A stretch of 36,333 nucleotides of DNA from Macrostomum lignano (taxonomy: Eukaryota), in the NCBI GenBank assembly GCA_002269645.1, contig NIVC01004745.1, positions 1 through 36,333 on the forward strand, read 5' to 3'. Positions within the stretch are counted from its first letter, which is position 1; each line of letters begins with the position of its first letter. Below the pieces are notes generated by a model. The model had not been told where the DNA came from. It was given only the letters and a program-made list of their open reading frames with translations, and did no database searches. Shown here piece by piece: positions 2,082-28,498 of this stretch. The position numbers were made by a program, and so were the translations under genes.

Positions 2082-3741
2082 ATGGCGCGGCGCAATCAAC
2101 GGTGCACAGAGATATCAAAGAGACAGTTGGCACCTTTTCTATGGAAAAAGACTTTAACACCTTTGTTGATCATTTTGACCTGGTATGTAGGGAATACAAC
2201 CTACAAAATCCAGAAAAAGCGCAACTGTTGCCACCACTCCTCCAAGGCACTGCACGAGAGATTTATGGTAAACTAGACGCGGCAACACAGCAAAACTACC
2301 CAGCATTAATCATTCAACTGCGCGCACATTTCAACCGCTGTGGCACAAACAGATCAGTGCTACTGCACAAGTTGCATAACAGAAGGATGCAGCCAACCGA
2401 ATCCTTCCTGACCTTTGTGGACGACATCCGTCAGATAATTAAGGCACTGCATCAGCCAACACTGCCAGCTGCAGACCAACCACCTCTGGGTGCGGCAGAA
2501 TTAGCCGCTAGAGAGCGACAGCGATTGATGGATCGCGAACAAAATCTGATTCTGCACGTAATAAACAATGCACAGCCGTCACTCCGAGATAGACTTCTAC
2601 GCGAAAACATTGAAACCGAGGAAGACCTTTTACGGTGCGGAATGCAGTGGGAAGCAAGCGCTCCACTAATGACAACCGGCAACACAGAAGTGCAGAAACT
2701 GACACAGCAACTAAACAAATTGATGCAACATCAAACAGCCGTTATCGCCGAACAAAAAAGACGAAATGAACGAGCCCAAGCCAGATGCTATTACTGCGGA
2801 CGAGAAGGACACTACCAAATACATTGTCCTCATCGGTCAACAAGAAATGACATGCAGCGACAGCCATTCAACAGAAGGAAGCCGCAAAAACCATGGCAAC
2901 AACATCAAAATTGGCAGCAGCAAAACACGAAACGCTTCGGAAACAATGGCTACAGACCGCGAAACACCAGATACATGCCCAAGCAACCAACGCAAGCGAT
3001 GCAACGATATGCAAACGCCATCACGTACACACCGGAAAGCGAACAGCAAGAGCAGCAAGTCTTCACGATAGACGACTTAGAAATGGACTTCACTATCAAT
3101 GAAATCGACTGGCTCGATGCGGAGAGCAGCGAAAAGACAAAAAACATCAGCATGGTCGAAATGAAAGAAACTAACATTGACAGCGAAGAAGAAAAGTCAG
3201 AAGTGAGCACAGAAAAAACATTGCAAGCGACATCAGTGAAAGAAAAGAAGAAACAAACAAAGGCAACGACAAAGAACTGGCAACGAAGGATGACAACGAA
3301 AGAAGCAACGACGGAAATACAGAGATGGAAGAAGAACAGCAAGAAGAAAGCAGCGATCACGATTATGAGATGCAGAATGACGCTGATGACAACCGAGCCG
3401 CCGACAAAGAACATGAAGACGGAAGGCACAAAGGAATGGAAGAAAGAAATCTAAGCTCCGACAGCGATCAATGCTACGAGATCCGATATAAACGAAATGG
3501 TGAAGCCTACATTCAAACGGTCGACTACAAGGCCGAAGTGAGGTACCGCAGACAATGGAGTGACACAACTACAACATCGGAAGAAAGCAAGGAAGAAAAT
3601 GATGAAGACGACAAGCAGCGGAACGAATCGGATGCCTTGCGCTCGGAAACGCCAATGGAACAAGAGGAAGAATACGATGCGGACGTAGAAGATAACGAAT
3701 GGCAGCCGCAGCCAATGCCAGCAAAGACAACGGCAACGTTC
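2082..3741 (+). CDS. gag: Gag (capsid-like domain, CCHC zinc knuckle, long acidic C-terminal spacer); frameshifted near 2100 and near 3215
   Basis: Likely start MARRNQ at 2082 shifts into HRDIKETVGTFSMEKDFNTFVDHFDLVC, a retrotransposon gag-like helical region. It has a CYYCGREGHYQIHC knuckle (CX2CX4HX4C), then a D/E-rich segment running into the env signal peptide. Confidence 0.85.
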
Positions 3742-5616
3742 AGAAAATGGCGATTCTGGATATTCTGGATCATCATAATACTACTGACGGCAGTAGTCAC
3801 CAAAGCAACAGCAATGGAGAAACCAATGATATGTCCAACGGATGCGCATATCCAACCGATGATCTACAAGATACCAACCGACATCAAATGCAGCTACTTC
3901 AAGACAAACCAGGCGAAGCCAAAAAGATCACAATCGATCTCTACAAAGCCAACATCAAGAAGCATCGACAACTTGGAATCGTGTGCTTCAGAGACAAGCA
4001 CCTAGTCGAAAAAATATGGCGAGGACAATGGAACAGAATCCGATTCCGACAGCATGAGCTACATGTGTCGCACGCTGACTGCCTACGATGGAACCAGACA
4101 TTGTTCTCCAAAGATGGTGTACTAGAACCTGATGAAAAGGTCGGCAACGCACAACTCTTCCGAACAAAGAATGTGGCAAACGGTCGATATGTCCACTATA
4201 ATGAAAGATGGCCTGACTACACGGCACGCAACAGCTACCTAATCAGGAATGTTCCGTTCTACTACAATCCGTACGAGAAAATGGAATCACTGCAACTGCA
4301 ACTAAGTGAATGCCGATACAGCGAAGGATGGTGCCCAACGCCGATATTGCGAAATGCAGAACTCTACAGCCTACCGCTGAGTCCAACGTATCATCCAGAC
4401 TATCGATGGCAGATAGTGCACAGAGCCGATCCACACTACGAAGAGCCATCAAAGTCACGACAATATTTCTTCGCTTGGAAGGTTGAGACGGAAATCGACT
4501 GTCAACTACAAAAGTATCACACAGTGGAAGGAGGCCTACTGTCAAACACGTTTTTGGCAAAGTCAGGAGACTTGGCACTGACGTTTCAAAAGAAACCAGT
4601 CGAGCAAAAACTGAAATGCAAGGATACAGACAAGACACTATTATCTCGGAACAAGAGATACCAGTCTACGTAAAAGAAGACGACAAACAAACCTTTCTGG
4701 CGATCATCAACGGAACGTATCAACAGCAGGAACAACAGAACAGACGACGACGAGACATCGAACGTCCCAAACTGGTGTCAAACCGCTACTGTCAGCAAAG
4801 ATAACGGCTTTGGATCACAATCTACACAACCAGTTAAACCACTTGCATCGAACACTGGTTCAGCTAACTTGCAAAATGCACGCAATCAACTTAAATTATG
4901 CCAGACAAAACTACTATGTCAACCCTACGATGACTTTTCGTAAAATCACCGGAATGACAAACGTTTTGGCAGTTCCAATATACGAGCATCTGTTGATATA
5001 CAAGTGCACGCCGATACAGCACCTTAACATCTTGCCGTCGAACACGTCAACAACCTGCTACGACAAGCCAAGGATTGAAGCGTTCTACGAAGGAAAACGA
5101 ATTCAAGGATTCTTGGACACGGTACACAACATCATCGTCGGCACCGCAATACCGAGACCTTGCACCACGGCAGCAAACTACTATCAACTGGACAATGCAC
5201 TACACGTCATCAAAACAACTGGAACGACAGCAAACATCACAGAACCGGAAGTAATCGTCGACGAAAACTACGACATGGAGGATTTGAAAATCCGATTCAA
5301 CAGAACAAAGTATAGCCATTCGCCGATATCCAACTTGACGAGATAACACCAGGATGGACGATCAACGACTTCTTGCAAGCGTTCATCACCCAACGCAAGA
5401 TGATTCACCAGCTGTTCACAAGAAAGGACAAAGGAACCGGGACAGGAAGATTTCCCGTCCTTGTTTCAATGGACAGCGCCATCAAATCATTTTGGACAAA
5501 CAGCTTCTGAAAGCTGCTCAATGGAAGAGGAAGTCTCTATCAAGGATTCATCTTCTACGGTGCTTGCATTGTGTGGATTGTCACGGCAATCTTCATCATT
5601 TCGTCAATCGTACGGT
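3742..5616 (+). CDS. env: Envelope glycoprotein, class III (herpesvirus gB-like) fusogen; broken by several single-base frameshifts
   Basis: Signal peptide RKWRFWIFWIIIILLTAVVTKATA (3742-3813). Cys-rich ectodomain across ORFs 3325-4005, 3699-4673, 4616-4804 and 4810-5346, with sequons NQT, NGT, NTS, NIT, NRT. RRRR site at 4742-4753. gB-like VNPTMTFRKITG..LIYKCTPI and CYDKPRI..GFLDTVHNII..PRPC segments. TM GFIFYGACIVWIVTAIFIISSIV at 5544-5612. Confidence 0.8.
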
Positions 5617-7424
5617 GCTTCACTCAGACTTGTCCAAGAGCTAAGAAGACAGTGAATGCCATAATGCAAAGAACGACAACGGAAGGCGACAACAGTTTAG
5701 AACTAACAGAAACTGCACATCGTGAGGTTCAAGGGCAACCGACACTAGCAACGCGGCTATATCCATCGATTCCGACAACACCAACGGCACCAAGAATACA
5801 ACCACCCAATTATCAAGCAGAACAGCAAGACCCAAAATGGCCAGAGAACTACGTATGTACTCTACACGCCGAAATTGGCAAAGCAATGGCTCAAGTGGTA
5901 ATCAACAATCTACCATGTCGAGCGCTACTCGACTCCGGCAGCTCCATCACAGTTATATCAAAACAACTGTGCAACAAGCTACGACTTGCTCTACGGCCAG
6001 CAACAATCGCAGTTGCAGGAGCAGGAGGACATTCGCTAAACATTCTGGGAAAAGCCGACATTGATTTAAGAATCGCTAATAAACATTTGACAGTTCCAAC
6101 GTACGTCATCGACAGACTCCCAAACCAGGACGTTATTGTTGGCATCGACACGTTCAAGCAGCTTCGACTACCATTGACCTTCGACTTCAATAAGCAAACG
6201 TTCAAGATCGACTCGGTAGAACAACCATTGATCAACCAGATCCGAGTACTACCAAAAGTAACATTGCAACAAGATGTCATCATCCAACCGGAGAGCGCCT
6301 GCTGGATAAAGGCAAAGGCAACTAACGCAACGGAGGAAGCAATGATATTCGACCCAAACAGAAGAGTCACGGCTAAACACCAAATTATGATGCCTACGGC
6401 ACTAGTACTGGTTGCAAAAGATAAACAGCTGCCAGTACAAATATTCAACCCGAACACAGAAACGGTTCATCTACGACAAGGAATGTGCATCGGTCATCTC
6501 AACACCCAAGCATCGGTTATGCTGATTGAGCAAGCGACTCCACGACTAACAGAGGAAGAATTTCAAAAGAAGATCAATTTGGATGACAGCCCGATTACGG
6601 AACAGCAAAAGAGGAAAGTTCGACAGCTGTTGTGGAAGTACAACGACGCTTTCTGCCACCATGACTACGACATCGGACGAGCCAAGGACATCAAACAGGA
6701 AATCAAACTTCTGCCGCACACGGAACCAATTCAGTGCAAGCCGTACCCGATAGCCAAGCATCTGCAACAACACTTCGACGAAATTATCGACAAAATGCTA
6801 AAGCACGGCATCATCAGCAAAGCAATTTCAGCCTACTCCTCACCGTGCCTACTGGTACAAAAGAAGGAGACTAACGAAAGACGACTCGTATGTGACTTCA
6901 GACTACTGAACAAGTACATACCGACGGATCAGCAAAGCCTACCGAAGATCTCCGAACTACTAGCAAAGCTCAACACGGCAAAATTGTTCACAGTGTTCGA
7001 CCTACGTCATGGATTTTGGCAAATTGAAATCGAGAAAGAGTCACGACAGTACACGGCTTTCAAAACCTACAATGGACAAGTATACGAGTACAATCGATCG
7101 CCGATGGGACTCAGCAACAGCCCAGCAACGATGAGCCGACTAACAGCATACATGCTTGCAGGATGCACGAACCTGTTGCACTATGTTGACGACATCTTAG
7201 CCTACGGAGAAGACTTCGAACGACTCTATGAAGCGACGGAGAAGGCCCTCGCGCTTATCCAACGACAAGGACTTAAGCTACAACCGACGAAATGCAAATT
7301 CTTCCGAGACAACGTACGTTACCTAGGACACCAAGTGACAGCCAAAGGAATTTCACCGGACCCAGACAACGTGGAGAAAGTGAAAAAGTTTCCTACGCCA
7401 ACTAGCAAAACGAAGGTCCAATAA
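5571..7424 (+). CDS. pol: Env TM/cytoplasmic tail fused in frame to aspartic protease and reverse transcriptase
   Basis: ALLDSGS (DSG at 5931-5939), RRLVCDFRLLN, FDLRHGFWQI, PMGLSNSPATM, YVDD (7182-7193). The ORF ends at an in-frame TAA (7422-7424) inside the RT connection motif KVQ*FLGLAQYFRKF. Confidence 0.95.
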   Translation: MWIVTAIFIISSIVRCFTQTCPRAKKTVNAIMQRTTTEGDNSLELTETAHREVQGQPTLATRLYPSIPTTPTAPRIQPPNYQAEQQDPKWPENYVCTLHAEIGKAMAQVVINNLPCRALLDSGSSITVISKQLCNKLRLALRPATIAVAGAGGHSLNILGKADIDLRIANKHLTVPTYVIDRLPNQDVIVGIDTFKQLRLPLTFDFNKQTFKIDSVEQPLINQIRVLPKVTLQQDVIIQPESACWIKAKATNATEEAMIFDPNRRVTAKHQIMMPTALVLVAKDKQLPVQIFNPNTETVHLRQGMCIGHLNTQASVMLIEQATPRLTEEEFQKKINLDDSPITEQQKRKVRQLLWKYNDAFCHHDYDIGRAKDIKQEIKLLPHTEPIQCKPYPIAKHLQQHFDEIIDKMLKHGIISKAISAYSSPCLLVQKKETNERRLVCDFRLLNKYIPTDQQSLPKISELLAKLNTAKLFTVFDLRHGFWQIEIEKESRQYTAFKTYNGQVYEYNRSPMGLSNSPATMSRLTAYMLAGCTNLLHYVDDILAYGEDFERLYEATEKALALIQRQGLKLQPTKCKFFRDNVRYLGHQVTAKGISPDPDNVEKVKKFPTPTSKTKVQ

Positions 7425-9005
7425 TTTCTTGGACTTGCGCAATACTTCCGAAAGTTCTTACCCAACTTCGCGAAGACAGCAAAGCCACTGTACGACCTGC
7501 TCAAGTTCGACAAATGGAAGCAGGAGAATTGGACACAAAAGCAACAAGAAAGTTTTGACGAAATCAAACGACAGCTGACATCAGACGCACTGCTACAGCA
7601 TCCGGACTTCGACAAACCCTTCATCATCGAGACAGACGCCTCAGGAACGGGACTCGGAGCAGTCCTACTACAGGAAACTGAAGACAAAAAGGAACGACCT
7701 ATAGCATACGTCAGTCGAGCACTTAAACCGAATGAGACAAAATGGTCAGCTACGGAACGAGAACTACTAGGAGTTCTGTTCGCCCTACGACAGTTTCACT
7801 ACTACATCTATGGATCTCCATTACAGACGATAGTACGCACAGATCATGCACCGCTGACCTACGTCGTAACTACAAAAGGACAAACAAACAACCGACTCAT
7901 CAGGATGACACTCAAGATCCAGGACTACAACTACAAACTCGTCTACAAACCAGGAATTACTAACAAGGCCGCGGACGCCCTGTCAAGAGCCTACGAAGTC
8001 AACGCCATTCATCCAATCCCTAACATCAAGGAATTGGTGGATGAGACGGAACACGACAACTTCTACATAGCAGTTAAAAACAACGACAAGGACATCAAGC
8101 TCAGCCCCGTGGAACGAAAATTCCTACGCAAGCAACGACAACACCTAGCAATCAATAAGTCACGGCTCTACTGGATGAGCGACAATAAACCTAAGATCTA
8201 CGTACCATATTCGTTTCGGCAAGCAATTCTCAACGAGCTGCACGACAACCCACTCGCTGGACACCTGTCGGCCGCAAAGACCATCGCGAGAGTGGAACAA
8301 TACTACTTTTGGCCAACTATGTACGGCGACATCAAGCAGTATTGCAACAACTGCCATTCATGTGCTGCATCAAAGACAGGACGACGACAGAAACCGCAGC
8401 TACAGTCCATTCCGAAGTCGACTACAATGGACTGTCTAAGCATCGACATCACCGGACCGCTACCACCGAGCTGTCTCCAGGGCATAGCCTACACCTACAT
8501 CCTAACCGCCTTGGATATCTTCTCGAAGTTTGCTATCGCCATACCGATACCGGACATCACAGCTCAGACGGTGGCAATGAGCTTTTTCAACGACATCATC
8601 TGCAAGTACGGCACGCCGAAGAATCTTACGTCAGACAACGGATCGCAGTTTACGTCTCAACTGTTTCAGCAAGTTGTGAAGATTCTCAACATTACGCAGA
8701 TCTACACATCGACCTACAATCCGAAGGCGAACATGGTTGAACGGTTTCACCGCAACCTGCACGAGATGATTACACACTTCGCGCATCAACAGCCGGAAGA
8801 CTGGATCATCTACCTGCAATCAGTAACAATGGCCTACAACAGCGCTATTCATCGATCAACGGACAATACGCCATTCTTTCTAATGTTTGGGCGAGACTTC
8901 CAGCCGCCAAACCTATTGGCACAGCAACTACTACCATCGCAATATGTGGAAGTCCGACGTCCATTCAAAAGTTCGTCACGCAACTACACCTCGCATGGAA
9001 AGTAG
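7425..9005 (+). CDS. pol: RNase H and integrase (HHCC zinc finger + DDE core), same frame as RT
   Basis: FIIETDASGTGLGAVLLQ, WSATERELLGV and TDHAPL (RNase H). ELHDNPLAGH..CNNCHSC (HHCC), IDITGPLP, SDNGSQF, VERFHRNL (integrase core). Frameshift near 8955. Confidence 0.95.
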   Translation, partial: FLGLAQYFRKFLPNFAKTAKPLYDLLKFDKWKQENWTQKQQESFDEIKRQLTSDALLQHPDFDKPFIIETDASGTGLGAVLLQETEDKKERPIAYVSRALKPNETKWSATERELLGVLFALRQFHYYIYGSPLQTIVRTDHAPLTYVVTTKGQTNNRLIRMTLKIQDYNYKLVYKPGITNKAADALSRAYEVNAIHPIPNIKELVDETEHDNFYIAVKNNDKDIKLSPVERKFLRKQRQHLAINKSRLYWMSDNKPKIYVPYSFRQAILNELHDNPLAGHLSAAKTIARVEQYYFWPTMYGDIKQYCNNCHSCAASKTGRRQKPQLQSIPKSTTMDCLSIDITGPLPPSCLQGIAYTYILTALDIFSKFAIAIPIPDITAQTVAMSFFNDIICKYGTPKNLTSDNGSQFTSQLFQQVVKILNITQIYTSTYNPKANMVERFHRNLHEMITHFAHQQPEDWIIYLQSVTMAYNSAIHRSTDNTPFFLMFGRDFQPPNLLAQQLLPSQYVEVRRPFKSSSRNYTSHGK

Positions 9006-9028
9006 CCAAGCACAACATCGACAATCAG

Positions 9029-9394
9029 GTGGCTCTAACCACCGGCACCGACATGAGATCGACAACTCTGACAGCCGGCGACATCGTCTACCTGCACTAT
9101 CCGCCGCAACAGACGCACAAACACGCACAGAAGTACAAAGGACCATATCGAGTGGTCCAACTAACGTCACCGACAACGGCACGCCTGGCCAATGTGCAAG
9201 ATCCTCATCAGCACCAATTCTACGTGCACATTCATCGACTAAAGAAGATCAACACTGACACGACAGCGTTTTTACCGTCACTAGACAACGCTGATCGCAC
9301 GCGTTCGGCGAACCGCCACATCGCAACAAAACACGAGGAGACACAAACATCAACCGAGAACCAGCAACATGGCTACAATCTGCGACCTCGTTAA
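9029..9394 (+). CDS. pol: Integrase C-terminal GPY/F domain (frameshifted continuation of pol)
   Basis: AGDIVYL..KYKGPYRVVQ motif; ends HGYNLRPR*. Confidence 0.88.
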   Translation: MALTTGTDMRSTTLTAGDIVYLHYPPQQTHKHAQKYKGPYRVVQLTSPTTARLANVQDPHQHQFYVHIHRLKKINTDTTAFLPSLDNADRTRSANRHIATKHEETQTSTENQQHGYNLRPR

Positions 9395-9505
9395 GTTGCG
9401 AAAACAACCCGTGTAGAGACCGGGTCAGAATAGCTCTACAGCTTCGCAAGCTTGTCGTAAGAGGCGACTAATCTGAGCGACTTCAAACTTCAAGCGACAA
9501 CGACA

Positions 9506-9718
9506 ATGGGCAACGCACTGTCCAAACAGGCGCCCCAACTACAGCAACTCTACGAATGCCCAATATGTTTAACTGATGACTTGGCTGTCAAGCCACCAAT
9601 TATTTGTGAAAACAGACATCGCATATGCGGACAATGTTTAAGCGACTCACATTATATTCAGCTCTGGCAGAATTGCCCGATAGGTAGAAGTAGTTTGCGG
9701 CAGTGCGCCTATTGTTAG
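9506..9718 (+). CDS. Small RING-finger (C3HC4-like) protein with predicted N-myristoylation site, accessory ORF of the LTR element
   Basis: MGNALS fits M-G-x-x-x-S, with strong Kozak context ACAATGG. Cys/His pattern CPIC..CENRHRICGQC..CPIG; the last ligand is Gly rather than Cys. Confidence 0.75.
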   Translation: MGNALSKQAPQLQQLYECPICLTDDLAVKPPIICENRHRICGQCLSDSHYIQLWQNCPIGRSSLRQCAYC

Positions 9719-9927
9719 TCTTGGCGCACATGTCAATACTGTAACCAAAAACATTTTATTTGCATGCGTATACTTACCTTTAAATAACTTTTATAACCAA
9801 CGCTCTTAACTACCCATTACTAAATACCTGTAACACTTATGACAAATGATTATTATAAAGACATGCTTGAACTTTTTATGCGTTTCAATCCTCTCTTTAA
9901 AACTCGGGACGAGTTTTTTTGTAAACA

Positions 9928-9937: not shown

Positions 9938-10997
9938 TGTAGAGTGTTCTACCTCCCGTAAGAAGACATGAAAGTGTTAACGTACTACTCACACATTTTA
10001 TTCAGTAGTAAGTTGAAGAGCATGAATAAAGGTATGCTTTGAATTATAAGTATATTCTGACTAACCAATAGAAAGAGAGAGACCTTGAGCATGCTAATTT
10101 TAGAAATCACCCAATCACGTGCGACCAACAACTGTCAATTCAAACCCCACCTTCAAGTCATCATTTGGTTTGCACTCGGGTTGCACCCGGATGAACCAAT
10201 CAAAGTCTACCAGCTACGGTAACCAATCATGCGCTTTTACAGTAGACTAGTTGCGCAACTTTCTACCCTGTCATGCTTGACAGCCACCGAATCGTGACCC
10301 TTTGACATTTGCGAAGACAGTGATGTACGACCTCGAGAGAGGTCTGAACGCCTATAAATACAAGTGGTCCGGAACGGACCCGGAGCCACAGAATCTCCAA
10401 GAGAGAGAAGCTCCGAAGAGGAAGCTCTAGTGAAGCCTTCCTGAAGAAACTCGCGTCGTGGACGAGTTCTTGCGGTAAGCCTTACTCATTTGCGCCCGTT
10501 GGTTGAGACGTCTCGCTCAAGTCTATTGAGACTTGAGTTTATTTGAGTCTGCTGAGACTCTTGAGTCTGTTTAGACTCCACTGGTTGCAGTCTCCAGAAG
10601 GACTGCCCCTGATAGGTCTTAGAAGACTATCAGTGGTTTCCGGAGCTATACCTAGAGTGCAGAGAGGCACTGCTAGAAGGAGTAGGCTTATATTAAACCG
10701 CAGTTCGGCGCAGGGATCCCCATTGTTGATTTGGAAGCTTCCCATTGGTCCGCACTACAGATACCGGCCGGAAACGACTTCAGTGGACAAAAGGAACGCG
10801 GACCTGGTTACGAACATAGACGTCTAAAGAAGTTCGAGGGACAAAGGAAGTCAGAGAACTACAGAACACGGAAGAGCTCTCCGAGACAGGACTCAAGGTA
10901 ACACATACCTTCATTTGATTACTGGGTTGCCTAGCTACAGAGCTAGAAGTGATTGTTCCTTGATTACAGTGGAGGACTGGTAATAAGGAACACATCA
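9938..10997 (+). repeat. 3' LTR (1060 bp)
   Basis: Differs from the 5' LTR, by eye, in one substitution (GTAATACA vs GTAACACA) and about six 1-bp indels, mostly at short homopolymers. Confidence 0.97.
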
Positions 10998-11001
10998 CTA
11001 C

Positions 11002-11517: not shown

Positions 11518-12592
11518 TTATTATGGAACCTATACAGTGAATCTATCAATTACCGCACTGCAAGAATAATTACAAATTCAAATAAATAGCGTTGCACTTA
11601 CTAATTGGTGGCACATTCTGAGACACATTTCCTGCAGGCCTGTCTGAAATGTAAATTGTGAATTTTTTTTGTTTCCGGTTCAATTATGTTTCTCATGGTG
11701 CGATAATCTTTCGAAAACTATTCCTTATACAATTAAAATCATTTTAAAGTGTTCTTCTGTTCAATGCCCTTTTCGATATTTTCTATCTTCGAAATGTCGT
11801 TATCCAGTCCTTTTGAGTTGCCCGAATCTGGAGTTCAGAAGTCTTTTTTTACTTCGATAAAGTACATTAATATAATAGTAATGTTGTTACTCTTGCCGTT
11901 GTCAGTATATTCAGAGTTTGTGCTTACTGTTCTGGTTGACGAGTTCTGGTTCGCTGTCAGGGCTAGGCTGCTTGCTTTCAGTTGGGTTCTGGCTACTACC
12001 GCTGCCTGGCTGATTTAATAAAAACTAAATTGCTATTGAAAACTAGCGATAGTTGAAGTTTGACAACTTACCAGCAGACTTAGTGACTGCACCATTGTCG
12101 AGGACTTGTTCCACTGCAGAGCAAATTGGCGGGTGGAAATTTTCTGCTTATCTGCATCAGAAAGCTACGATTACTCGTAGGCGCAAAACTTTTAGATTGA
12201 AATAAAAAATCTGCAGCATACCAACTTCATTCGACATGACTGCGGCTCAAATCTAACAATCTAAAATGTGGTTTTTGTTTAAATACATTTGAAATGAGAT
12301 GATGTACTCGTCATTGAAAAAAGTTATATCAAGTTACTAGAACCAAAAGCTGTGAAATCCGTCAACCGTAGGTGTGGAAATTTTCTTTCTGCCGCAGTCA
12401 TGACGAGGCGCTTCCAAGGCTGTGTACAGCTGTTCAGTCCGCGGGCACCGGGGCTGCCACACCCAAAAATTTTCTCCCCCAGACCGGGATAATACGAAAA
12501 ATACTGTTATATCCAATGGCAAGTGCCAGGTATTATGATGTGCGTCGAAAATCAGTCGGTAATAAAAATAACTCTCCGGGCAGTATATATGA

Positions 12593-14143
12593 AAAACCTC
12601 ACTGTCTATGGCAGAAACATCGCCTTCAAGAAGGAGGTCAAATACCTCGGTGTGACGCTAACACATGACCTGCGCTGGATGAAACACCTTGAGAACGTCA
12701 TCGGTCGGGCAAAACGCTGCTTTGCCCAGCTGCGCAGAGCCATCGGGCCGACTTGGGGCCTCTCGCCTAGAACGGTCCGTTGGATTTATACCGGCATCAT
12801 CCGGCCCAGTATCACATATGCGAGTCTCATCTGGACTAGCGTGCTGGAGCAGAAAACCGCCCGTCAGCGCCTGCACCAGCTGCAGGGCAGCATTTGTCGC
12901 GCCATCACAGGTGCGTACCCGTCTACCCTCTACGAGGGGCTGAACACTATTCTTAATCTTCCTCCGCTTCACCTATTTATTAGGGTGGAGGCTATGAAGT
13001 CCTCCTCCCGACTTTATCAGAGATAAAACGTTAAATAACGTACCCTCTGGCTTTATGCCAATGAAAACATTAATCCCGCATATGGACTTTGTTCGCCACG
13101 ACCTCAACAACATCCACATGGACCTGGGCAATGTGGATAGTCGACTCCCCGCTCTCAACATCAGGAGGGGCTTCCAGACCGCCATCCCTGGCCGAGACAA
13201 CATTCCGCTGGATGTCGGCGTGAACCGGCGCAGCCAGGGCATTCACTGCTTCACTGACGGCTCGCTGTTCAACGGCCGCGCTGGAGCGGGTATTGCCATT
13301 TTCCACGAGGGTAAGATGCTTTTCCAGGAAAGCCTGCACCTCGGTGAGAACACCTCAGTTTTCCAAGCTGAAATTTGCGCCATTGAGCAGTGTGCCCAGC
13401 AACTGCTTCAGGCGAACATTAATAATTTTGACATTAATTTCTACACTGATAGCCAAGCTGCTATTAAGGCCTTGACCACTGTGAATATCTCCGCTGCTAC
13501 AGTATCTCAATGCCACCGCAGTGTGCAATCTCTCTCAGTCCTTAACAGGATTAGAATTATCTGGACACCCGGTCACAGCAAAATCCTGGGCAACGAGCTC
13601 GCGGACTCTCTCGCCAAGGAGGGCAGCAACCCAGACGGCAACCACCGTCTGATGAGGCTACCCACTCCCAGGTCGCAAGTCACCCGCCATATTAACAGGT
13701 GGCTCCATCAGCAGCACCAGCTTCACTGGAACAGCTGCACCGAGTACAGGCAGAGCCGCTCTGCCATGCCTAACCTGAACAGGAAAGTCTCTGATTATCT
13801 GATTTCGCTTAACAGAACCGACCTCAGGGAGATGTGCATGGTCCTAACCGGCCATGGATTCTTCCAGAGACATATATCGTTGCAAACCGGTTGCCCTCCC
13901 ACCTGTCCTTTCTGTGGCATAGGAGAGGAGACCGCAGAGCATCACGTCACCTTCTGCCCTTACTTCAACAAGGCGCGGCACAAATACCTCGGCCACCCCC
14001 AGCGGATGGACGAGCTGACCACCCCGGACAATATCCGAGACCTTCGCGCCTTCGTCCGGGACTCTGGCCGGATGAGGGTCGCCGATGCCTCCACTGCGAA
14101 CCTGCCGACTACTGGCGGGGACTGGGCGCACCCCCAGGGTTAA
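12593..14143 (+). CDS. LINE ORF2 C-terminal part: RT thumb, RNase H, Cys/His domain (1-nt frameshift near 13022)
   Basis: [26 protein letters not shown]; [39 protein letters not shown] (RNase H); [24 protein letters not shown]. Confidence 0.9.
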
Positions 14144-14238: not shown

Positions 14239-15010
14239 AGTATATATGATTGCTAAACAACTTCAGCTTGTCAAAAGGCTTTTAATGACGACTTACGAAA
14301 TTGACAAGTTGTGGAAGCGATACTCCTCAGAGAAGATGTAGCGGTCTTCGGACTGCGATGTGCAGCTGCTCAATTAAAGTTCAATAATTAGATACCTGCA
14401 GCAACTCTTAAGCTTTGTGCGACCGTAAGCCCAATTAGAATTATAAGTTGCTTGGCTTGGGGCTTTACTAATATTTCACAAGGTTAGCATTGTAGTGTTT
14501 GGATTAACAATGTCAGAGCTACTTGTAGGCAACTATAGTGGCTGGGGTAGGAGTGTGCTGACGCACAGAAGTACTGGAGCTGGCAGAAATGGCCAAAGTA
14601 CTTGCGCATTGCTGGATCGGGGTGGCTGTATGGCAGCAATGTCCTGCGCACTAGACAGGCTCTTGCGTATGACTCAGAGCTATGGTAGAGAAAGACTGCA
14701 AAAGCACAGTAGCAATCTCACTGCGCACCTCAATGCGCAATGTACTCAGAATTATCAGCATTTATTATAAAAATCTGAGTCCTGCAGTACACCGATGCAG
14801 CTTTTTCACATGCACGTACAAAACGAAGTTCCGTTTTACATTGATTTGCAGTCGTTCTCTTTGAGTTCGGGACTGGAAAACGGGGTGAAAAAAAACTGCA
14901 GCACCCTGAAACACAGCTGTCGCTTGCAAGCAACATTTCACTTCTCTTCGTCATCCACAATATGAAGTGAATGGGTATAATGACTGGTATATAGAGACGG
15001 GTGTGGTAAA

Positions 15011-17457
15011 ATGAGGAAAGTGTCAGGTAGATGGAGGAAGGTGTCAGGTAAATGGAGGAATGTGTCAGGTAAATGGAGGAATGTGTCAGGTAGATGTAGG
15101 AATGCGTCAGGTAGATGGAGGAAGGTGTCAGGTAGATGGAGGAATGTGTCAGGTAGATGGAGGAATGTGTCAGGTAGATGGAGGAAGGTGTCAGGTAGAT
15201 GGAGGAAAGTGTCAGGTAGATGGAGGAAGGTGTCAGGTAAATGGAGGAATGTGTCAGGTAAATGGAGGAATGTGTCAGGTAGATGTAGGAATGCGTCAGG
15301 TAGATGGAGGAAAGTGTCAGGTAGATGGAGGAAGGTGTCAGGTAAATGGAGGAATGTGTCAGGTAGATGTAGGAAGGTGTCAGGTAGATGTAGGAATGTG
15401 TCAGGTAGATGTAGGAATGTGTCAGGTAGATGGAGGAAAGTGTCAGGTAGATGGAGGAATGTGTCAGGTAGATGGAGGAATGTGTCAGGTAGATGTAGGA
15501 ATGCGTCAGGTAGATGGAGGAAGGTGTCAGGTAGATGGAGGAATGTGTCAGGTAGAAGGAGGAATGTGTCAGGTAGATGGAGGAATGTGTCAGGTAGATG
15601 GAGGAATGTGTCAGGTAGATGTAGGAATGTGTCAGTTAGATGTAGGAATGTGTCAGGTAGATGTAGGAATGTGTCAGGTAGATGGAGGAATGTGTCAGGT
15701 AGATGGAGGAATGTGTCAGGTAGATGGAAGGTGTCAGGTAGATGGAAGGTGTCAGGTAGATGTAGGAATGTGTCAGGTAAATGGAGGAATGTGTCAGGTA
15801 GATGTAGGAATGCGTCAGGTAGATGGAGGAAGGTGTCAGGTAGATGGAGGAATGTGTCAGGTAGAAGGAGGAATGTGTCAGGTAGATGGAGGAATGTGTC
15901 AGGTAGATGGAGGAATGTGTCAGGTAGATGTAGGAATGTGTCAGTTAGATGTAGGAATGTGTCAGGTAGATGTAGGAATGTGTCAGGTAGATGGAGGAAT
16001 GTGTCAGGTAGATGGAGGAATGTGTCAGGTAGATGGAAGGTGTCAGGTAGATGGAAGGTGTCAGGTAGATGTAGGAAGGTGTCAGGTAGATGGAGGAAAG
16101 TGTCAGGTAGATGGAGGAATGTGTCAGGTAGATGGAGGAATGTGTCAGGTAGATGGAGGAATGTGTCAGGTAGATGGAGGAATGTGTCAGGTAGATGGAG
16201 GAAGGTGTCAGGTAGATGGAGGAATGTGTCAGTTAGATGGAGGAATGTGTCAGGTAGATGGAGGAATGTGTCAGGTAGATGGAGGAATGTGTCAGGTAGA
16301 TGGAGGAATGTGTCAGGTAGATGGAGGAATGTGTCAGTTAGATGGAGGAATGTGTCAGGTAGATGTAGGAATGTGTCAGTTAGATGGAGTAATGTGTCAG
16401 GTAGATGGAGGAAGGTGTCAGGTAGATGGAGGAATGTGTCAGGTAGATGTAGGAATGTGTCAGTTAGATGGAGTAATGTGTCAGGTAGATGGAGGAATGT
16501 GTCAGGTAGATGGAGGAATGTGTCAGGTAGATGGAGGAATGTGTCAGGTAGATGGAGGAAGGTGTCAGGTAGATGGAGGAATGTGTCAGTTAGATGGAGG
16601 AATGTGTCAGGTAGATGGAGGAAAGTGTCAGGTAGATGGAGGAATGTGTCAGGTAGATGGAGGAATGTGTCAGGTAGATGGAGGAATGTGTCAGGTAGAT
16701 GGAGGAATGTGTCAGGTAGATGGAGGAAGGTGTCAGGTAGATGGAGGAATGTGTCAGTTAGATGGAGGAATGTGTCAGGTAGATGGAGGAATGTGTCAGG
16801 TAGATGGAGGAATGTGTCAGGTAGATGGAGGAATGTGTCAGGTAGATGGAGGAATGTGTCAGTTAGATGGAGGAATGTGTCAGGTAGATGTAGGAATGTG
16901 TCAGTTAGATGGAGTAATGTGTCAGGTAGATGGAGGAAGGTGTCAGGTAGATGGAGGAATGTGTCAGTTAGATGGAGTAATGTGTCAGGTAGATGGAGGA
17001 ATGTGTCAGGTAGATGGAGTAATGTGTCAGGTAGATGGAGGAAGGTGTCAGGTAGATGGAGGAATGTGTCAGTTAGATGGAGGAATGTGTCAGGTAGATG
17101 TAGGAATGTGTCAGTTAGATGGAGTAATGTGTCAGGTAGATGGAGGAATGTGTCAGGTAGATGGAGGAATGTGTCAGGTAGATGGAGGAATGTGTCAGGT
17201 AGATGGAGGAAGGTGTCAGGTAGATGGAGGAATGTGTCAGTTAGATGGAGGAATGTGTCAGGTAGATGGAGGAATGTGTCAGGTAGATGGAGGAATGTGT
17301 CAGGTAGATGGAGGAATGTGTCAGGTAGATGGAGTAATGTGTCAGGTAGATGGAGGAATGTGTCAAGTAGATGGAGGAATGTGTCAGGTAGATGTAGGAA
17401 TGTGTCAGGTAGATGTAGGAATGTGTCAGTTAGATGGAGGAATGTGTCAGGTAGATG
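15011..17457. repeat. 21-bp minisatellite/satellite (GTCAGGTAGATGGAGGAATGT), about 117 monomers with variant units
   Basis: Direct reading. Variants include 18-bp units, GTAAATGG, ATGCGTC, GTTAGATGG and GGAGTAAT. Confidence 0.98.
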
Positions 17458-17731
17458 AGGTTTCCAGTGAGGTTTCCAAGAATTTTATATGTTAAACAAT
17501 AGAGTATAGCTTTATGAATAAAACGACACATTTAGAAGACTTGAAAATGAAAAATTCAGTTTTCAGTTTCTCTCAGTTTTTATTATTGCTTTTCTTTTCT
17601 CCGCATGTTGTTTTCGTAGATTTTACAGTTGACGCACAGTTTTTGTGGTCACGTGACCTGGCGGGAATCGCTAAACGCATAAACTGAAATTTGATTGCAA
17701 GTCACAATGTTTGTTCTCACTCAGCATAGAA

Positions 17732-19424: not shown

Positions 19425-20926
19425 ATGGCCTTCGAGCCGACTATGGAAAAAAACCCTAGTTCTAGGGACGGGGACCCTTCTAAACCCCAACCTCAGTCCG
19501 AAGGACCGGCCGGCCCTGCTGGCAGATCCCAACCGACTGATTCAACTGTGGCAAAGGAAGGACCGGCTGGCTCTGCTGGCAGATCCGACCAGAGCTACCA
19601 AACTCAAAATACCCAAAGACCTGCCAGCTCCGCTGGTGGATCTAAGGGAACCGCGAGCTCTGAGCCTAAAGGACCGGCCAAATCTGGCAGATCCGATGAA
19701 GCTCAGCGGGCTCAGCTTGAGCGCAAACGCGCTAAACAACGCGCCAAAAGGCAGGCCAAGAAGGGAGCTGCGGGGGCCAAAGCGGCGGCGTCCACCATGG
19801 ATGCTGAAGCGACTGGAGTCCCAAGGCAACCAGGCGGGCCGGCCGGTGGAAGCTCCAGTAGTTCAGCGGCGGCGCTCCCTGGAGATGCTGCCGCGGCTGC
19901 TGAGGCCGAAACCACGGCGCAACAAATGGCCACTGCCAACAAGGAGGTTCCTTCGGGAGCTACCTTTGCGGCAAAGGCCAAGGCCAAAATCCCGGGAGTG
20001 ATCATCCAAGGTCGCGACCAGGACTGGACCACTGATCAGCTTCAAAAAGTGTGGAGTGCTGTTGACTCCTATCTGATTGGCTGACTGTCGAGGAGGGAAT
20101 CTCCATCGGCATTGAGCGGATGGTGCTGCGAAGCACATTCGTTCTTATTGCTCCTAGCAGCGAGGAGGACGCTCGGCAGCTGCTCCAGCGGCTACCGACG
20201 GTCTCCTTGGATGCTGACCTTGGCGGAGCTCTTTTTCTTCGCGAGGGCCAGCGTCCAAAGACGATACCCTATGTGGTTTTCGTCCCTGCTAAGAGCACCG
20301 CAGCTGGACCAGACGTTATCGCCGGGTCCTACTGCGTCTGAACCCGACCTCCCTGCTAGTGGACTGGTGTATCACCGCAAAGTCCGCAGGGGGGAGACGG
20401 GCAACTCAATTGTCCTCGGCCTTTCCAGCACTTGGGCGAGTCGGTACCCTAATGGATCCTCTTTCAGCTGGGTGCCCTCAAGCTCAAGATGCGCCGAGGA
20501 AAGTCTGCCAAAGGGAAGGCTACTGCCAACCCCGGCATCTCCGGCAAGAGCGAGGCGCAGTCTAAGGCCCAAGGAAAGGCGCAAGCCGATCCCAAAGCCA
20601 AAGCTGCGTCTCGCCCTCTGCTAGCAGCAGTTCGGCGACCGCGGTAACGGCTCCGGCCAAGCCCCGGGAACCAAACCTGCCAGTCGGAGAAGGAGTTGAG
20701 GACGAGGCCGGGTCTTCGGAATCCGAGCTCTCCTCGGCCACCCTGGTGGGGTCTGAAGGTAAAGATGCAGATGAGGAAGCTTCCTCCATCCTGTCATCGG
20801 AGCCTGAGGACTCTGCTGGGGGGGGCCGGTGGGGGTGAGGAGGCCATGGACGTCGACCAACTCCCATCTCCCAGTCAAGCCCCAGCGGCCTGGGACGAGG
20901 ACGATCTGTTGTCCAAGTCTCCTTGA
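19425..20926 (+). CDS. LINE ORF1 (low-complexity N-terminus, DUF4780-like domain), frameshifted
   Basis: Pro/Ala/Gly-rich region, basic ERKRAKQRAKRQAKK, then TFAAKAK..WTTDQLQKVWSAVDSYL..FVLIAPSSEEDARQLL..YVVFVP. This pattern resembles DUF4780 of LOA-type ORF1s (recognised by eye). Confidence 0.6.
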
Positions 20927-20965
20927 TGGCCCTGGGCTCTAGCCAGACATTGCATTTAATACAGT

Positions 20966-23900
20966 ATGACTAAGCTCCACGCTGCCAAAGGAGCGACATT
21001 CTGTCTGCAAATAAATTTACAGCATTGCGTATCTGCGTCAGTAAATCTGATGAAGATTGCTGAGCTGTACAGGCCAGGCCTCATCCTGATCCAGGAACCC
21101 TGGATGCGCAACGGTAAGTTGCCCAACATTCCCTCTGGCTACTCTGATTTTTATGTGTGTGGCCCGGGGAACAGCCGCCCTAGAGCGGCTATCCTCGCTG
21201 CTAGCCATCTCCAGGCTTGGCTGAGGACTGATCTCTCTGATGGAGACCTTTGCGTCATCCAATCTAATCATTTCTCTCCGCGTACGTGTCTTGTTGCCTC
21301 GGTTTATATCCCAGGCGACAGAGACCCTGCTCCGAGAGTTTACTGCGCCTCGCGCAGTACTGCGAGTCCCAGAACGCTGAGCTGTGCTTAGGGGGCGACC
21401 TCAACGCGCACCACAAGCACTGGGGCAGCAAAGATACCAACACTAGAGGAGAGGAGCTTCTGGCCCTCATCTCTAACACAAACCTCATGCTCTGCAACCG
21501 CGGCAGCACTCCTACCTTTAATAATGGCAGATGGACCGAGGTCCTCGACGCCACACTCGTTACCCCAAGACTCTTTGACAGAGTTAAGGAGTGGAGAGTC
21601 TGGTCTGAGGAGCCCCTCCCTGTCTGACCACTGCTTTATCGCCTTTAACATCGCGGACACTAAAACCCAGTCTCCGATCACTTGGAGGCGCAATATCCGC
21701 AACACTGATTGGGCGGCCTACAAGGCTGCCCTTGATCTGCACCTGCAGGAACTCACGGACTTACGTCCGATTGAGACCTGCGAGGATGTGGATCATATGG
21801 CTGAGACGCTGACAGGTTGCATTATTGCAGCCTACGAAGCGGCTTGTCCTGCTCGCGCCTACAAAGGCAAGACCTCGGCGCCGTGGTGGAACCCGGAGCT
21901 GGGGAAACTCAGGCGGAAGGCCAAAAGCCTTCATCGCCGTGCCATGAAGACCGGAAACCCGGAGGACATGGAGCTTTTCCGGCAAGCCTCCCGCAATTTC
22001 AAATCTGAAGTGCGCAAGGCCAAGGAATGTAAGTGGCGCCAATTCTGCAATGAATTGGATCAAGACAGACCTACTTCTAGGCTTGTCAAGGCCCTTACAA
22101 TGGACAAAATGTCCAAATTAGCCATGATCAAAAAAGATGATGGCTCTCTTACTAAAGACCCTGAAGAAGTGCTTCAGCATATGCTTAGCACATTCTTCCG
22201 AGGGTACCTACTGCTAGACCGGAGCCCAACCATTCGATGGATGGAGCCACCCTAGCGGCGGGCATTGTCACTGAAGACCTAATCGCTCGTGCGGTCAGAA
22301 CCTTCAAACCCTTCAAATCTCCTGGACCTGATGGTATCTACCCTGTTCTCCTTCGTGAAGCAGCCAAGATACCCTCGTTCCTGAGACTCACCCGCAATCT
22401 TATGCGGGCCTCTATCCAGCTGGGATACGTTCCCAAATGCTGGACTGAAGCTCGGGTAGTCTTTATTCCCAAACCTGGGAAGGGTGACTACCAAAGCGTC
22501 AAGGCCTTCCGGCCTATTAGCTTAACGTCAGCAATGCTTAAGCTCACTGAGAGGCTTATTCTCTGGCGGCTGCTGTCCTGCGAGCTGACAGCGATGCCCC
22601 TCAGCAATAATCAGCACGCCTTCCGTACCGGGAGGTCGACTGACAGCGCCCTGCATGCGATTGTCGAGAAGATTGAACGGGCGGTACTGGGTGACGGTTA
22701 CGCCCTGGCTCTCTTTCTTGACATTGTTGGCGCCTTCGACAACGTTATCTTTGAAGCGTTTCAGAGGGCCCTTCAAAATCGCAAAGCTCATGCTACCCTC
22801 ATACGGTGGATCATGTACATGATCCCAACCGTACGGTCACTGCCCAACTTCTTGGGCAAACTGCCTCCACCAGAGTCTGTAAGGGTGGACCCCAAGGCGG
22901 AGTCCTCACCCCGACGCTCTGGAACCTGGTCATGGACGCTCTTCTGAGTGACTCCCGACCCGACCCCGTCTTCAAAGTCGGGTATGCTGATGACGTCACG
23001 GCCATTGTGGCAGGACCGTCTCCCAGCACGCTCAGGGATCTGATGCAGAGCTTTATCCGCAAAGCAGAATCCTGGGCCAATGACAATGGTCTGGAACTCT
23101 CTGAGCCCAAAACCGTTGCCATTATGTTTACCAGCAGACTACGCTGGAACATACGTCCTCTGCAGCTCTACGGCAGAGATATTGCCTTCGCGCACCAGAC
23201 CAGATGTCTCGGGGTCACACTTGACCACCGGCTCAACTGGTCCTTCCACGTGAAAGCAAAAGCCAAGCGTGCCTCAGCCATCCTGGCCAGCTCCGACGAG
23301 CACTTGGCACTTCTTGGGGTCTATCCCCAAAGCGGCTTTGGTGGATCTATACTTCCGTAGTTAGACCTGCCATTACGTACGCCTCTGTTGTCTGGGTTAG
23401 CGCTACCCAGGTCAAAAGCCATGCAGACCTGCTCAACACGATCCAAGGCAGAGCGTGTAGGCTCATCTGCAACGCCACCAGGTCCACGCCCTTTGCTGGC
23501 ATGGGGGCCTTCCTTAATCTACCGCCTCTTGACCTCTTCGTCAGGGGTGAGGCGGCTAGAACGACGCGGCGTCTAATTGATGCCGGCGTCAAATTCATTT
23601 ACATGAGAGCACCTGCTAAGCGGAACCTTGTCCCGCATAGCGACCTGTGCCTCAACTTTCTCAACGAGTGTCAGGCCAATCGCGTCTTCACCGATGGCAT
23701 TGCCTCAACGCTCAACCTGAGACAGCGCTACTCCATAGCTATCGACTCGCGCGATAACATCAATGACCAATGGAACCTTGATGAGCTTCATTGCTACACC
23801 GACGGTTCTAAGCAGTCAGCCAACACCGGCTTTGGTGTTGGAATCTTTCTGAACGGGAGGGTCATCGCTACCCACGCTCAATACACTGGGGTCAACTCCA

Positions 23901-24703
23901 GTGTTTTCCAAAATGAAGTTCTGGCCATCAGCTCCTGCACTGCAGAGCTTCTCGCCACTGGCGTTATTGGCAAGAACATCATTTTCCATTCGGACAGCCA
24001 AGCTGCCTTGCACGCCATCAGTGGCTGCAGCACCAACTCTGCTACAGTCCTCGACTGTATCAAACTCCTCAACGTGTTGGGTTCCGCCAACAAAATTACC
24101 CTTAAGTGGGTTCCGGGGCATGTGGGGATCCGAGGAAATGAGTTGGCTGACACCCTTGCAAAAGTCGGTGCCTCCGGCTCCTCTCTCGGCCCCGAACCTC
24201 TTGTCCCGATTCCTGGCTGTGTCATCAACTCGCGCATCAAAGCGTGGATCAGGACTCAGCACCGCTCGACTTGGGCGAACCGCACGAACTGCAGGCAATC
24301 CAGAGGCGCTGTCCCTCAGCCCTCTCACCAGCTCCGGAAGCTCCTCTTGCGCCTCTCGCGCAGAGACATCCGGGCTGCCACCATGACCCTCTCTGGTCAC
24401 GGCTGCTTCTCCAGGCACCAGTACCTGCAGGGCAACGCCACCAACGCCACCTGTAGTTTCTGTAACTCAGGTGACGAAACCGCTGAGCATTTCGTCAGCA
24501 TCTGTCCCGACTTTACGCGAGCCAGACTCACTTACCTCGGGCCACACACATCTATTACTGAAGCGTGCAAACCCGAAAACTTTATTCAGCTCATGCGCTA
24601 CCTTCGGGCCACCCGGAGGGCTGAACTCTCCTTTCCAGAGAGCACCATAGCTGCTGGCGACACTGGGGGACCTCCCTGGGCGGCGCCAACCCTCCGTCCA
24701 TAG
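20966..24703 (+). CDS. LINE ORF2: AP endonuclease, reverse transcriptase, RNase H, C-terminal Cys/His; several frameshifts
   Basis: LQINLQH, LIQEPW, GGDLNAHH, TPTF, SDH (APE); KSPGPDGI, FIPKPGK, RPISLTS, LDIVGAFD, GPQGGVLTP, YADD (RT); YTDGSK..VFQNEV..SDSQAA..WVPGHVGIRGNELAD (RH); CSFC..ETAEHFVSICP. Confidence 0.93.
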
Positions 24704-26621: not shown

Positions 26622-27364
26622 ATCCCGCAAGATAAAAGTTTGTAGGTTTTCTTCTTTGTACGTATGAAATATTTTTGTGAGGAAATTATGTAAAGAGCAG
26701 AATTTTTAAAGTTGATTTTTTTAGTTTCGGGTGTTTTTGTGCTCGAACCTGACAGTACGCCTTTCAGTACGTGCAGTGGACAGTGGGGCGAACTATTGAT
26801 ATCCTTATTAATTATTTTCTTGTATAATGAGCTCATTATTTATTTGCATTGACCAATCCTCATACTACAGCTAACTTGAACTTTTAACCCTTTGAGCAGC
26901 CATCTCTTTGAAAAATTGCTGCAAGCTCCAAAGTGGGGTATAGGCGACTCGTGCAAATTTTTCTGAGTTTCATACACTTCAGAAATTGGATGTGAACGCA
27001 AAAGTGTGCGTTTTAGCCTACCTACTTATAAGTAATACCTTTTGATCTTCGAAATCAACGCAACAAAAAATATATTTTTTAATACTCCACTACTTAAGCA
27101 CTAGCGCATGTACAATGTTGCTTGTATTCTTAAGTTTTCATTTAGATGAGTCCGATTTGGTGGTCAATTCAGGATTTTTAAAGTAGTGGGGGCAGATTTG
27201 CCCAAATTTTTGTTTTGGTCTAAAAAGCCAAAGTAAGCTCAAAATTTACCCCCCTTATATGCAAGTCCAGCCATGGCAAAGGGGCGGCCGCCGGGTCTAC
27301 TACATCTACGAGTACATTTGACCGCCACAATTTGATCGCCGTTCTATTCAAGGTGAAATAGGGC

Positions 27365-28066
27365 GGCGGGCAAATTGTCTGGCGGGCAAATTGTCTGGCG
27401 GGCAAATTGTCTGGCGGGCAAATTGTCTGGCGGGCAAATTGTCTGGCGGGCAAATTGTCTGGCGGGCAAATTGTCTGGCGGGCAAATTGTCTGGCGGGCA
27501 AATTGTCTGGCGGGCAAATTGTCTGGCGGGCAAATTGTCTGGCGGGCAAATTGTCTGGCGGGCAAATTGTCTGGCGGGCAAATTGTCTGGCGGGCAAATT
27601 GTCTGGCGGGCAAATTGTCTGGCGGGCAAATTGTCTGGCGGGCAAATTGTCTGGCGGGCAAATTGTCTGGCGGGCAAATTGTCTGGCGGGCAAATTGTCT
27701 GGCGGGCAAATTGTCTGGCGGGCAAATTGTCTGGCGGGCAAATTGTCTGGCGGGCAAATTGTCTGGCGGGCAAATTGTCTGGCGGGCAAATTGTCTGGCG
27801 GGCAAATTGTCTGGCGGGCAAATTGTCTGGCGGGCAAATTGTCTGGCGGGCAAATTGTCTGGCGGGCAAATTGTCTGGCGGGCAAATTGTCTGGCGGGCA
27901 AATTGTCTGGCGGGCAAATTGTCTGGCGGGCAAATTGTCTGGCGGGCAAATTGTCTGGCGGGCAAATTGTCTGGCGGGCAAATTGTCTGGCGGGCAAATT
28001 GTCTGGCGGGCAAATTGTCTGGCGGGCAAATTGTCTGGCGGGCAAATTGTCTGGCGGGCAAATTGT
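27365..28066. repeat. 16-bp tandem array (GGCGGGCAAATTGTCT) x about 43.9, apparently perfect
   Basis: Direct reading; no variant unit noticed. Confidence 0.98.
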
Positions 28067-28498
28067 GGCGGTCTCCGCTGTCGGTCTCCCGCGGCCGCGC
28101 CCCCCCCCTTGGATAGTGGCGTAAATAAATACTCATTTCAAAGTTTTACATGTAAGTAGGCGGCATACCCTTGCACAAGGTTGCATAATTATTTGAAAGC
28201 CGTATGCTTGTATGGGGTGGACAGTTGACAGTCAAAATGCCTATATCTACATGTACCTCCATACAGTAATAATTTACCTATTAAACAACAGGTAAGGTCA
28301 AAGATAACATATGCGTATGCCAGCAAAGGTTTAAAATTTTCAATAATTAATTGTACGGTACAATGCGATAGCAAAACAAACTAATCTTAGATGCAGCTAT
28401 TATCTAGAATCTCGATTTATCTTCCAGAATTTTAGAGAAATACAACTAGGACAGGGGAAATCCCGGAAAATCAATCAGGTTTGCCAAGCTGTATTAAA

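Follow-up and report, generated by a model that had tools for sequence, protein, structure and literature searches.

The window (the whole 36,333-nt stretch of Macrostomum lignano DNA that was analysed) contains, on the plus strand, a Ty3/gypsy errantivirus with the gene order gag, gB-like env, pol. A CTAC target-site duplication (326–329, with the right copy at 10998–11001) encloses a 5' LTR of the form TG...CA (330–1385) and a 3' LTR (9938–10997), and the two LTRs are 99.34% identical over 1061 columns, which suggests that the insertion is young. The 5' LTR is followed by a primer-binding site, TGGTGATCTCGC (1388–1399), by gag (2082–3454), which starts with MARRN, has a zinc knuckle and lacks a glycine at position 2 (Gly2), by the env region (several frame pieces, approximately 3600–5655) and by pol (5664–9394), where protease, RT, RNase H and integrase follow one another; LTR pair, primer-binding site, target-site duplication and domain order are all those of a Ty3/gypsy errantivirus. 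The env region is predicted to encode a gB-like (class III) glycoprotein, placed between gag and pol: its pieces align with residues 628–1138 of the polyprotein of a distant family, PF24664 matches residues 964–1093 of a relative's polyprotein (E 6.8e-5; 21.5 bits, under the curated cut-off of 27), and the region contains two hydrophobic segments, one signal-like and one anchor-like. Late-domain-like PTAP and PPNY motifs lie between the env anchor and the protease (5781–5813); among 11 elements checked, PTAP is present in the polyprotein of 10 and PPxY in that of eight.

The window copy itself is damaged. Its gag frame is disrupted soon after the start, pol has stops at 7422–7424 and 9003–9005 and shifts frame close to the integrase tail, and the polyprotein frame as a whole is interrupted at several points; among 20 further copies of the same subfamily, gag-env-pol is a single open frame in two, while the other 18 are broken at sites that largely differ. 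The element splits an unrelated open frame on the minus strand (11451–10998 and 329–270, with about 150 codons in the right flank), for which Pfam gave no match. Elsewhere the window holds two decayed non-LTR retrotransposons (12535–14143 and 19425–24703), whose frames we take to be endonuclease-, RT- and RNase H-like, long tandem repeats (14990–17495 and 27348–28136: a 21-nt unit, and a repeat with a 14-residue periodic frame) and an intact 674-aa ORF on the minus strand (31045–33069) that has no Pfam match and presumably resembles a DNA-transposon transposase.

Errantiviruses of the HSV/gB type with the arrangement GAG-ENV-POL have been described in Nematoda, Bryozoa and Platyhelminthes (Chary et al., PMC13524379); as far as the accessible parts of that paper go, they have the same gene order and env type as the present element, and one row of its supplement is an M. 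lignano gag-env-pol errantivirus with the identical 12-nt primer-binding site. In the window (2082–9394) and in sister elements, gag, env and pol apparently form a single polyprotein of about 2500 codons with the signal-like and anchor-like segments internal, an unusual topology; the terms "single ORF", "fused" and "in-frame" never occur in the accessible text of PMC13524379.

Between the end of the integrase tail (9394) and the start of the 3' LTR (9938) lies a 70-codon ORF (9506–9718, plus strand; stop at 9718), which begins MGNALS at an ATG (9506) in strong context (A at -3, G at +4), just as the preliminary description had reported. Its placement at "the usual env position" was correct as a position, but the env of this element sits between gag and pol. 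A RING-like pattern occurs in one of the 77 ORFs of the window and in none of 2072 ORFs from 50 shuffles, which indicates that it is not there by chance; the myristoylation-type MG start (two of 77, compared with 29 of 2072 after shuffling) is weaker evidence than the RING pattern. All Pfam RING matches to the ORF were under the cut-off (zf-RING_2, E 0.023). While the pattern is real, the C3HC4-like set read from it is short of one ligand: CPIG brings the count to seven of eight and leaves Gly at the eighth position, where 22 of 22 full-length members of the family described below have Cys.

Comparison with sister elements shows that the ORF is a piece of something larger. Homology with the sisters passes straight through the stop, ends at 9767 and resumes at 9897; the sister frames are 198–222 aa long, and the ORF is therefore not a whole gene. 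It comprises the first 70 codons of a gene that we call paralog A (the MG arm, a RING1 short of one of its eight ligands and the start of RING2), cut by a premature stop, and is followed by a coding remnant of RING2 (9719–9767, plus strand, read with an X at the break) and by 129 nt without sister homology (9768–9896, plus strand), in place of which full cassettes have about 1270–1310 nt (the rest of paralog A and the whole of paralog B). The ORF is almost certainly what decay has left of the 5' third of the leading gene in an accessory cassette, a remnant of little importance in itself, and the mini-protein architecture first proposed for it falls, the sister elements carrying a gene of 198–222 aa of which this is the damaged residue.

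The intact cassette consists of at least two tandem paralogs of 198–222 aa, each with RING1, RING2 and a helical domain: paralog A (216–222 aa) comes first and is followed by a second, third or further paralog of 198–219 aa. In an alignment of 22 natural full-length members (non-identical open frames picked from sampled loci), two tandem units of the form C-x2-C...C-x3-H-x2-C-x2-C...C-x2-C are followed by an invariant WP and a helical tail; the 16 ligand columns are invariant or nearly so, and the eight-ligand spacing of both RING1 and RING2 is conserved in 21–22 of the 22. Pairwise dN/dS (leaving out pairs that were saturated or had dS above 1.5) is 0.12–0.28 for eight paralog-A pairs and 0.14–0.31 for five pairs of downstream paralogs, so the intact family is under purifying selection. 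No positive selection was seen in these pairwise values, and purifying selection alone is no sign of an arms race. The paralogs are only about 20% identical to one another, and across eight elements cassette DNA (76–84% identity) diverges faster than integrase DNA (90–95%), which, together with the repeated loss of the cassette (see below), is what one would expect of an optional accessory function. The position after the integrase is fixed, even between families about 70% identical in integrase DNA.

An AlphaFold model of the full-length protein (pLDDT 87.6; residues 1–11 disordered) superposes on RING folds over residues 16–65, and the matches from whole-protein structure searches are confined to RING1. 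The C-terminal domain is modelled as all-helical; searched alone, it had no BFVD match by Foldseek at E 0.001, and the best VIA Z, 5.6, was unconvincing. A profile HMM scan of 1.84 billion representatives returned 167 proteins at E 0.001 and six at 1e-10, namely an M. lignano model, three full-length proteins (206–214 aa), a 130-aa piece and a SIAH-like repeat protein, and within that scan the RING-RING-helical architecture was confined to the present family. No sequence in this genome is more than about 50% identical to any of the three full-length relatives (P0003–P0005), which suggests that the family reaches other organisms. A UniRef protein from M. lignano, on the other hand, matches sampled loci at 90–98%, and the host is very probably that flatworm. 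A word-indexed homolog search with the family alignment yielded 421 candidates, none at E 0.001 or below.

The cassette also turns up in other surroundings. A non-autonomous, pol-deleted family is represented by two copies in which gag, the greater part of env and both intact RING genes survive, which would fit supply in trans, and ten matches of the protein search share the frame length of this family. At four loci, cassette fragments adjoin Polinton-like genes, among which Pfam identifies an adenoviral-type protease and an integrase (capsid, ATPase and PolB are presumably present as well). We considered and rejected the cassette as a Polinton gene; at two loci beside capsid-like genes the piece begins within a gypsy integrase tail and is thus of gypsy origin there. 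On four contigs, LTR and cassette fragments crowd together on one strand, in dense clusters that might be traps of the piRNA-cluster kind.

Within the subfamily of the window the cassette is decaying. A DNA search (40 of 97 candidates scored) gave 22 copies of at least 98% identity and another 18 of 82–87%, and a protein search of the same genome gave 109 matches among 132 scored. Twenty of the 22 closest copies are ungapped in the alignment; all 20 share the stop at codon 71, the ATG and Gly2, none of them retains ligand 8, and ligand 6 is missing from 15 and ligand 7 from two. Variants common to several copies number two synonymous and five non-synonymous in the ORF versus 68 and 16 in the integrase core beside it (Fisher p 0.007; the integrase counts are inflated by recombinant copies), with 4 to 5 in the integrase tail, and the full set of just 14 ORF variants (four synonymous, 10 non-synonymous) is consistent with neutrality (p 0.49). 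The ORF thus seems to drift near-neutrally in this subfamily, as judged from these variants. Compared with eight sisters, on the other hand, the 70 codons of the window have dN/dS of 0.13–0.21, suggesting that they were under selection until recently. Two other subfamilies have been shortened in other ways, to frames of 113 or 124 aa with about 250–270 nt remaining, so that three subfamilies have most of the cassette gone. That of the window, with its premature stop, ligand losses and deletion of about 1.2 kb, still has at least 22 copies; it multiplied despite the loss, which argues that the cassette is optional in cis, and the existence of three such subfamilies suggests that its benefit is limited or shared.

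Upstream of the ORF we found a second conserved feature, a predicted structured RNA (9408–9469, plus strand) made up of a hairpin whose loop would pair with a downstream 7-mer, an AGAATA linker and the core GCTTGTCGTAAGAGGCGACT. All 63 exact matches to the core in the genome lie within 150 nt upstream of a RING ORF match; 36 matches to a one-base variant do so as well (compared by eye), and a second variant had no genome match ahead of a RING ORF. The same element was found elsewhere at two viral, three genome-bin and 40 metagenome loci. Across 45 distinct copies, which are related and hence not independent, the loop-to-downstream duplex averages 6.7 bp and the closing stem 4.2; the corresponding averages over 200 partner swaps are 5.3 (maximum 5.7) and 3.5 (maximum 3.8). 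Single-strand folding z-scores, computed without pseudoknots, were unremarkable in three of four cases. Three Rfam scans, which divergent members can escape, assigned no family, and no ribozyme family, whether HDV-like, twister, pistol, hatchet or hammerhead, appeared at E up to 5–10. The element looks like a pseudoknotted RNA that none of these scans could place. By-eye mapping of the element onto the HDV, twister, pistol and hatchet folds failed, and the HDV-like ribozyme of Chilo iridescent virus was rejected since its sequence, as printed in PMC6265322 and PMC8266583, differs.

Six loci have an ORF of the non-LTR endonuclease type downstream of the RNA element. One further locus places the element after an integrase tail and before an F-type env, another has a weak F match downstream of it, and most other loci have no clear ORF. 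A viral contig of 212 kb contains the element, and so do tandem repeats. According to the accessible parts of PMC6765202 and PMC8501958, HDV-like and twister ribozymes at the 5' ends of non-LTR elements release the RNA and support translation; the present element is like them in being a pseudoknotted RNA before endonuclease-RT ORFs, but it matches nothing in Rfam and sits inside an LTR element. By position and by analogy with these ribozymes, it may act through self-cleavage or internal initiation.

Several observations bear on how the genes might be expressed. An AG ends within two nt of the ATG in nine of 12 downstream paralogs compared with none of 10 first genes, the 5' LTR contains a GTAAG splice donor that begins at 866, and a public gene model (a prediction) links this donor to a downstream paralog. 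Contigs of two presumed-RNA runs have a loose end at 865 and continue with sequence like LTR position ~1150, and none of the joints listed leads to a RING gene. Four contig sets, which by their nature do not show level or strand, cover 29–30 of 30 element bins, and no RNA record was among the listed holders of the ORF. The host also resolves operons by trans-splicing (PMC8629364, in its accessible part). Paralog A could accordingly differ from its neighbours in its mode of expression: it would be expressed via the RNA element ahead of it, by internal initiation or RNA processing, and the downstream paralogs by splicing to the AG acceptors beside their start codons.

What, then, do the intact proteins do? 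They are most likely optional accessory RING E3 ligases. RINGs that bind an E2 typically have hydrophobic residues at ligands 1–2 and a proline and a basic linchpin at ligands 7–8, and some RINGs with these hallmarks are inactive. RING1 of the family has the motif C-P-hydrophobic-C-R, with Arg in 22 of 22 members, Pro in 21 of 22 and hydrophobic residues beside ligands 1–2; this retention favours a ligase role, while in RING2 the Arg is missing from all 22. Sina_RING matches 19 of the 22 members and the best PDB sequence matches are E3 RINGs. The spacing of RING1 (C-x3-H, C-P-x-C-R) is like that of SIAH/Sina and other RING E3s, but the Pfam, PDB and BFVD matches are weak, and those to SIAH/Sina, to other RING E3s and to viral RING E3s (ICP0 and the RING proteins of giant viruses are known examples) all reach RING1 only. 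SIAH/Sina proteins have a beta-sandwich substrate-binding domain after the RING; the C-terminal domain here is modelled as all-helical, and the family was not placed among them. The counter-defence or E3 half of the preliminary description is plausible for the intact family, which is element-borne, conserved and under purifying selection and has the E2-binding hallmarks in RING1, and we regard an E3-type counter-defence function as fairly probable. RING1 would recruit a host E2, RING2 and the divergent helical domain would choose substrates, and each paralog would probably address a different host factor and so blunt silencing or restriction; one paralog-A clade would have gained an N-myristoylation arm for membrane targeting, and cassette-less subfamilies would probably be supplied in trans.

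The other half of that description, a matrix or budding function like that of arenavirus Z, fares worse. Z combines N-myristoylation on a disordered, flexible arm with one central RING and C-terminal late motifs (PMC3509680, accessible part), and in one clade of the present family there is indeed a likeness, an N-terminal Gly on a flexible arm and then a C3HC4 RING; the arm is disordered in the AlphaFold model, as in Z, and five full-length members that differ from one another by a dS of about 1 or more still have MGxxxS[KR]. The premise that Gag has no myristoylation signal of its own was also sound: it starts MARRN, without Gly2, at 11 of 11 loci checked, including families with Gly2-less RING genes. 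However, Gly2 is present in the window ORF and five of 22 full-length members and absent from 17, and the five form one clade (100/99 support) nested among MG-less relatives in a midpoint-drawn tree with long branches flagged; it is also missing from all of P0003–P0006. The signal in this clade may be real, but it would be a local gain. Two outcomes would have counted against the preliminary description: a Gly2 that is not conserved, which is what we see family-wide, and a neutral host fragment, which we do not see. The natural product, unlike Z, has two RINGs and a helical domain in about 220 aa and is dispensable, at least 22 copies having spread with the gene broken; a single complete C3HC4 RING in about 100 aa is found neither in the window (seven of eight ligands) nor in the family. 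PTAP/PSAP and PPxY occur in none of the 22 members (there is one YP-x3-L) nor in the window ORF, whereas the polyprotein carries PTAP/PPxY, and Z chains score no better against the model than ordinary RINGs (Z 3.9–4.0, rmsd 2.4–2.6, 46–50 residues, tied with unrelated RINGs). A Z-like matrix or budding factor, or a membrane E3 assisting ESCRT budding of element particles, is accordingly improbable; the double-RING genes probably encode ubiquitin ligases directed against host defences rather than a budding protein.

A different possibility, unlikely in our judgement though the likeliest of the alternatives, is that the proteins are non-catalytic zinc-finger regulators of the element's own cycle (RNA export, translation, chromatin binding), accessory factors of the Rev/CERV type. 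RING2 lacks the E2 hallmarks, no fold could be matched convincingly to the helical domain, SAP-domain viral proteins are among the language-model look-alikes (0.85–0.86; Atlas scores of 0.90 or less are leads only), and Cer1 reportedly offers the precedent of an accessory export protein; such a role is hard to reconcile with RING1 Arg and hydrophobic positions that are invariant across paralogs about 20% identical, repeated loss of the cassette fits an essential cis function poorly, and the N-myristoylation arm speaks against a nuclear role in the clade that has it. That the 70-aa product is itself a selected mini-protein, for instance a myristoylated decoy, we hold to be very unlikely: the stop, ATG and Gly2 are common to all 20 ungapped copies, the RNA element upstream is intact and two other subfamilies keep N-terminal pieces of 113 or 124 aa, but common descent accounts for the shared stop, and the ligand losses and near-neutral variation described above speak against it. 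Least credible of all is the idea that the element passively picked up a fragment of a host RING gene and that this fragment evolves neutrally; although RING1 resembles SIAH-type RINGs, the dN/dS of 0.12–0.31 contradicts it, the position after the integrase is fixed between distant families, and no host gene of such architecture was among the matches examined, where several solitary copies had no retroelement genes within the 6–7 kb surveyed.

Invertebrate LTR elements are generally regarded as having no genes beyond gag-pol(-env), and to our knowledge few element-encoded counter-defence proteins have been identified. Extra 3' ORFs in LTR elements (PMC5408684, accessible part) and viral RING ligases are, for their part, already known kinds. 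Bdelloid LTR retrotransposons have additional ORF3 genes (GDSL, DEDDy, TM or coiled-coil) that resemble the present cassette in being non-env genes captured 3' of pol, with family-specific gain and loss and spliced messages, but, within the accessible part of PMC5408684, these include no RING and no paralog arrays. The cassette and RNA element of the present family likewise go undescribed in the accessible parts of PMC13524379, where RING has no occurrence in the text or seven supplement files and ribozyme, pseudoknot, IRES and splicing have none in the text, and a term search of the accessible part of PMC12801592 found no mention of either. In a wider search, outside which lay bioRxiv supplements and most subscription papers, we found no description of a gypsy-borne RING ORF, of the cassette or of the RNA core.

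A more far-reaching picture, which we hold to be rather unlikely, is that a flatworm errantivirus lineage has an accessory operon like those of complex retroviruses: a variable array of double-RING ligases, one of them myristoylated, would act against restriction or piRNA factors; a self-cleaving or ribosome-recruiting RNA of a class not yet described, found also at non-LTR 5' ends and where pol meets env in another errantivirus, would express the first gene; and cassette-less subfamilies would cheat on relatives that carry the cassette and in some cases lack pol. Because the flatworm is ready for transgenesis, an array of RING ligases under selection would offer a direct route to host restriction factors by way of their degradation, the natural subfamilies with and without the cassette make cheating and complementation testable, and the shared RNA element may explain, in a way that can be tested, how translation of genes located 3' of pol comes about.
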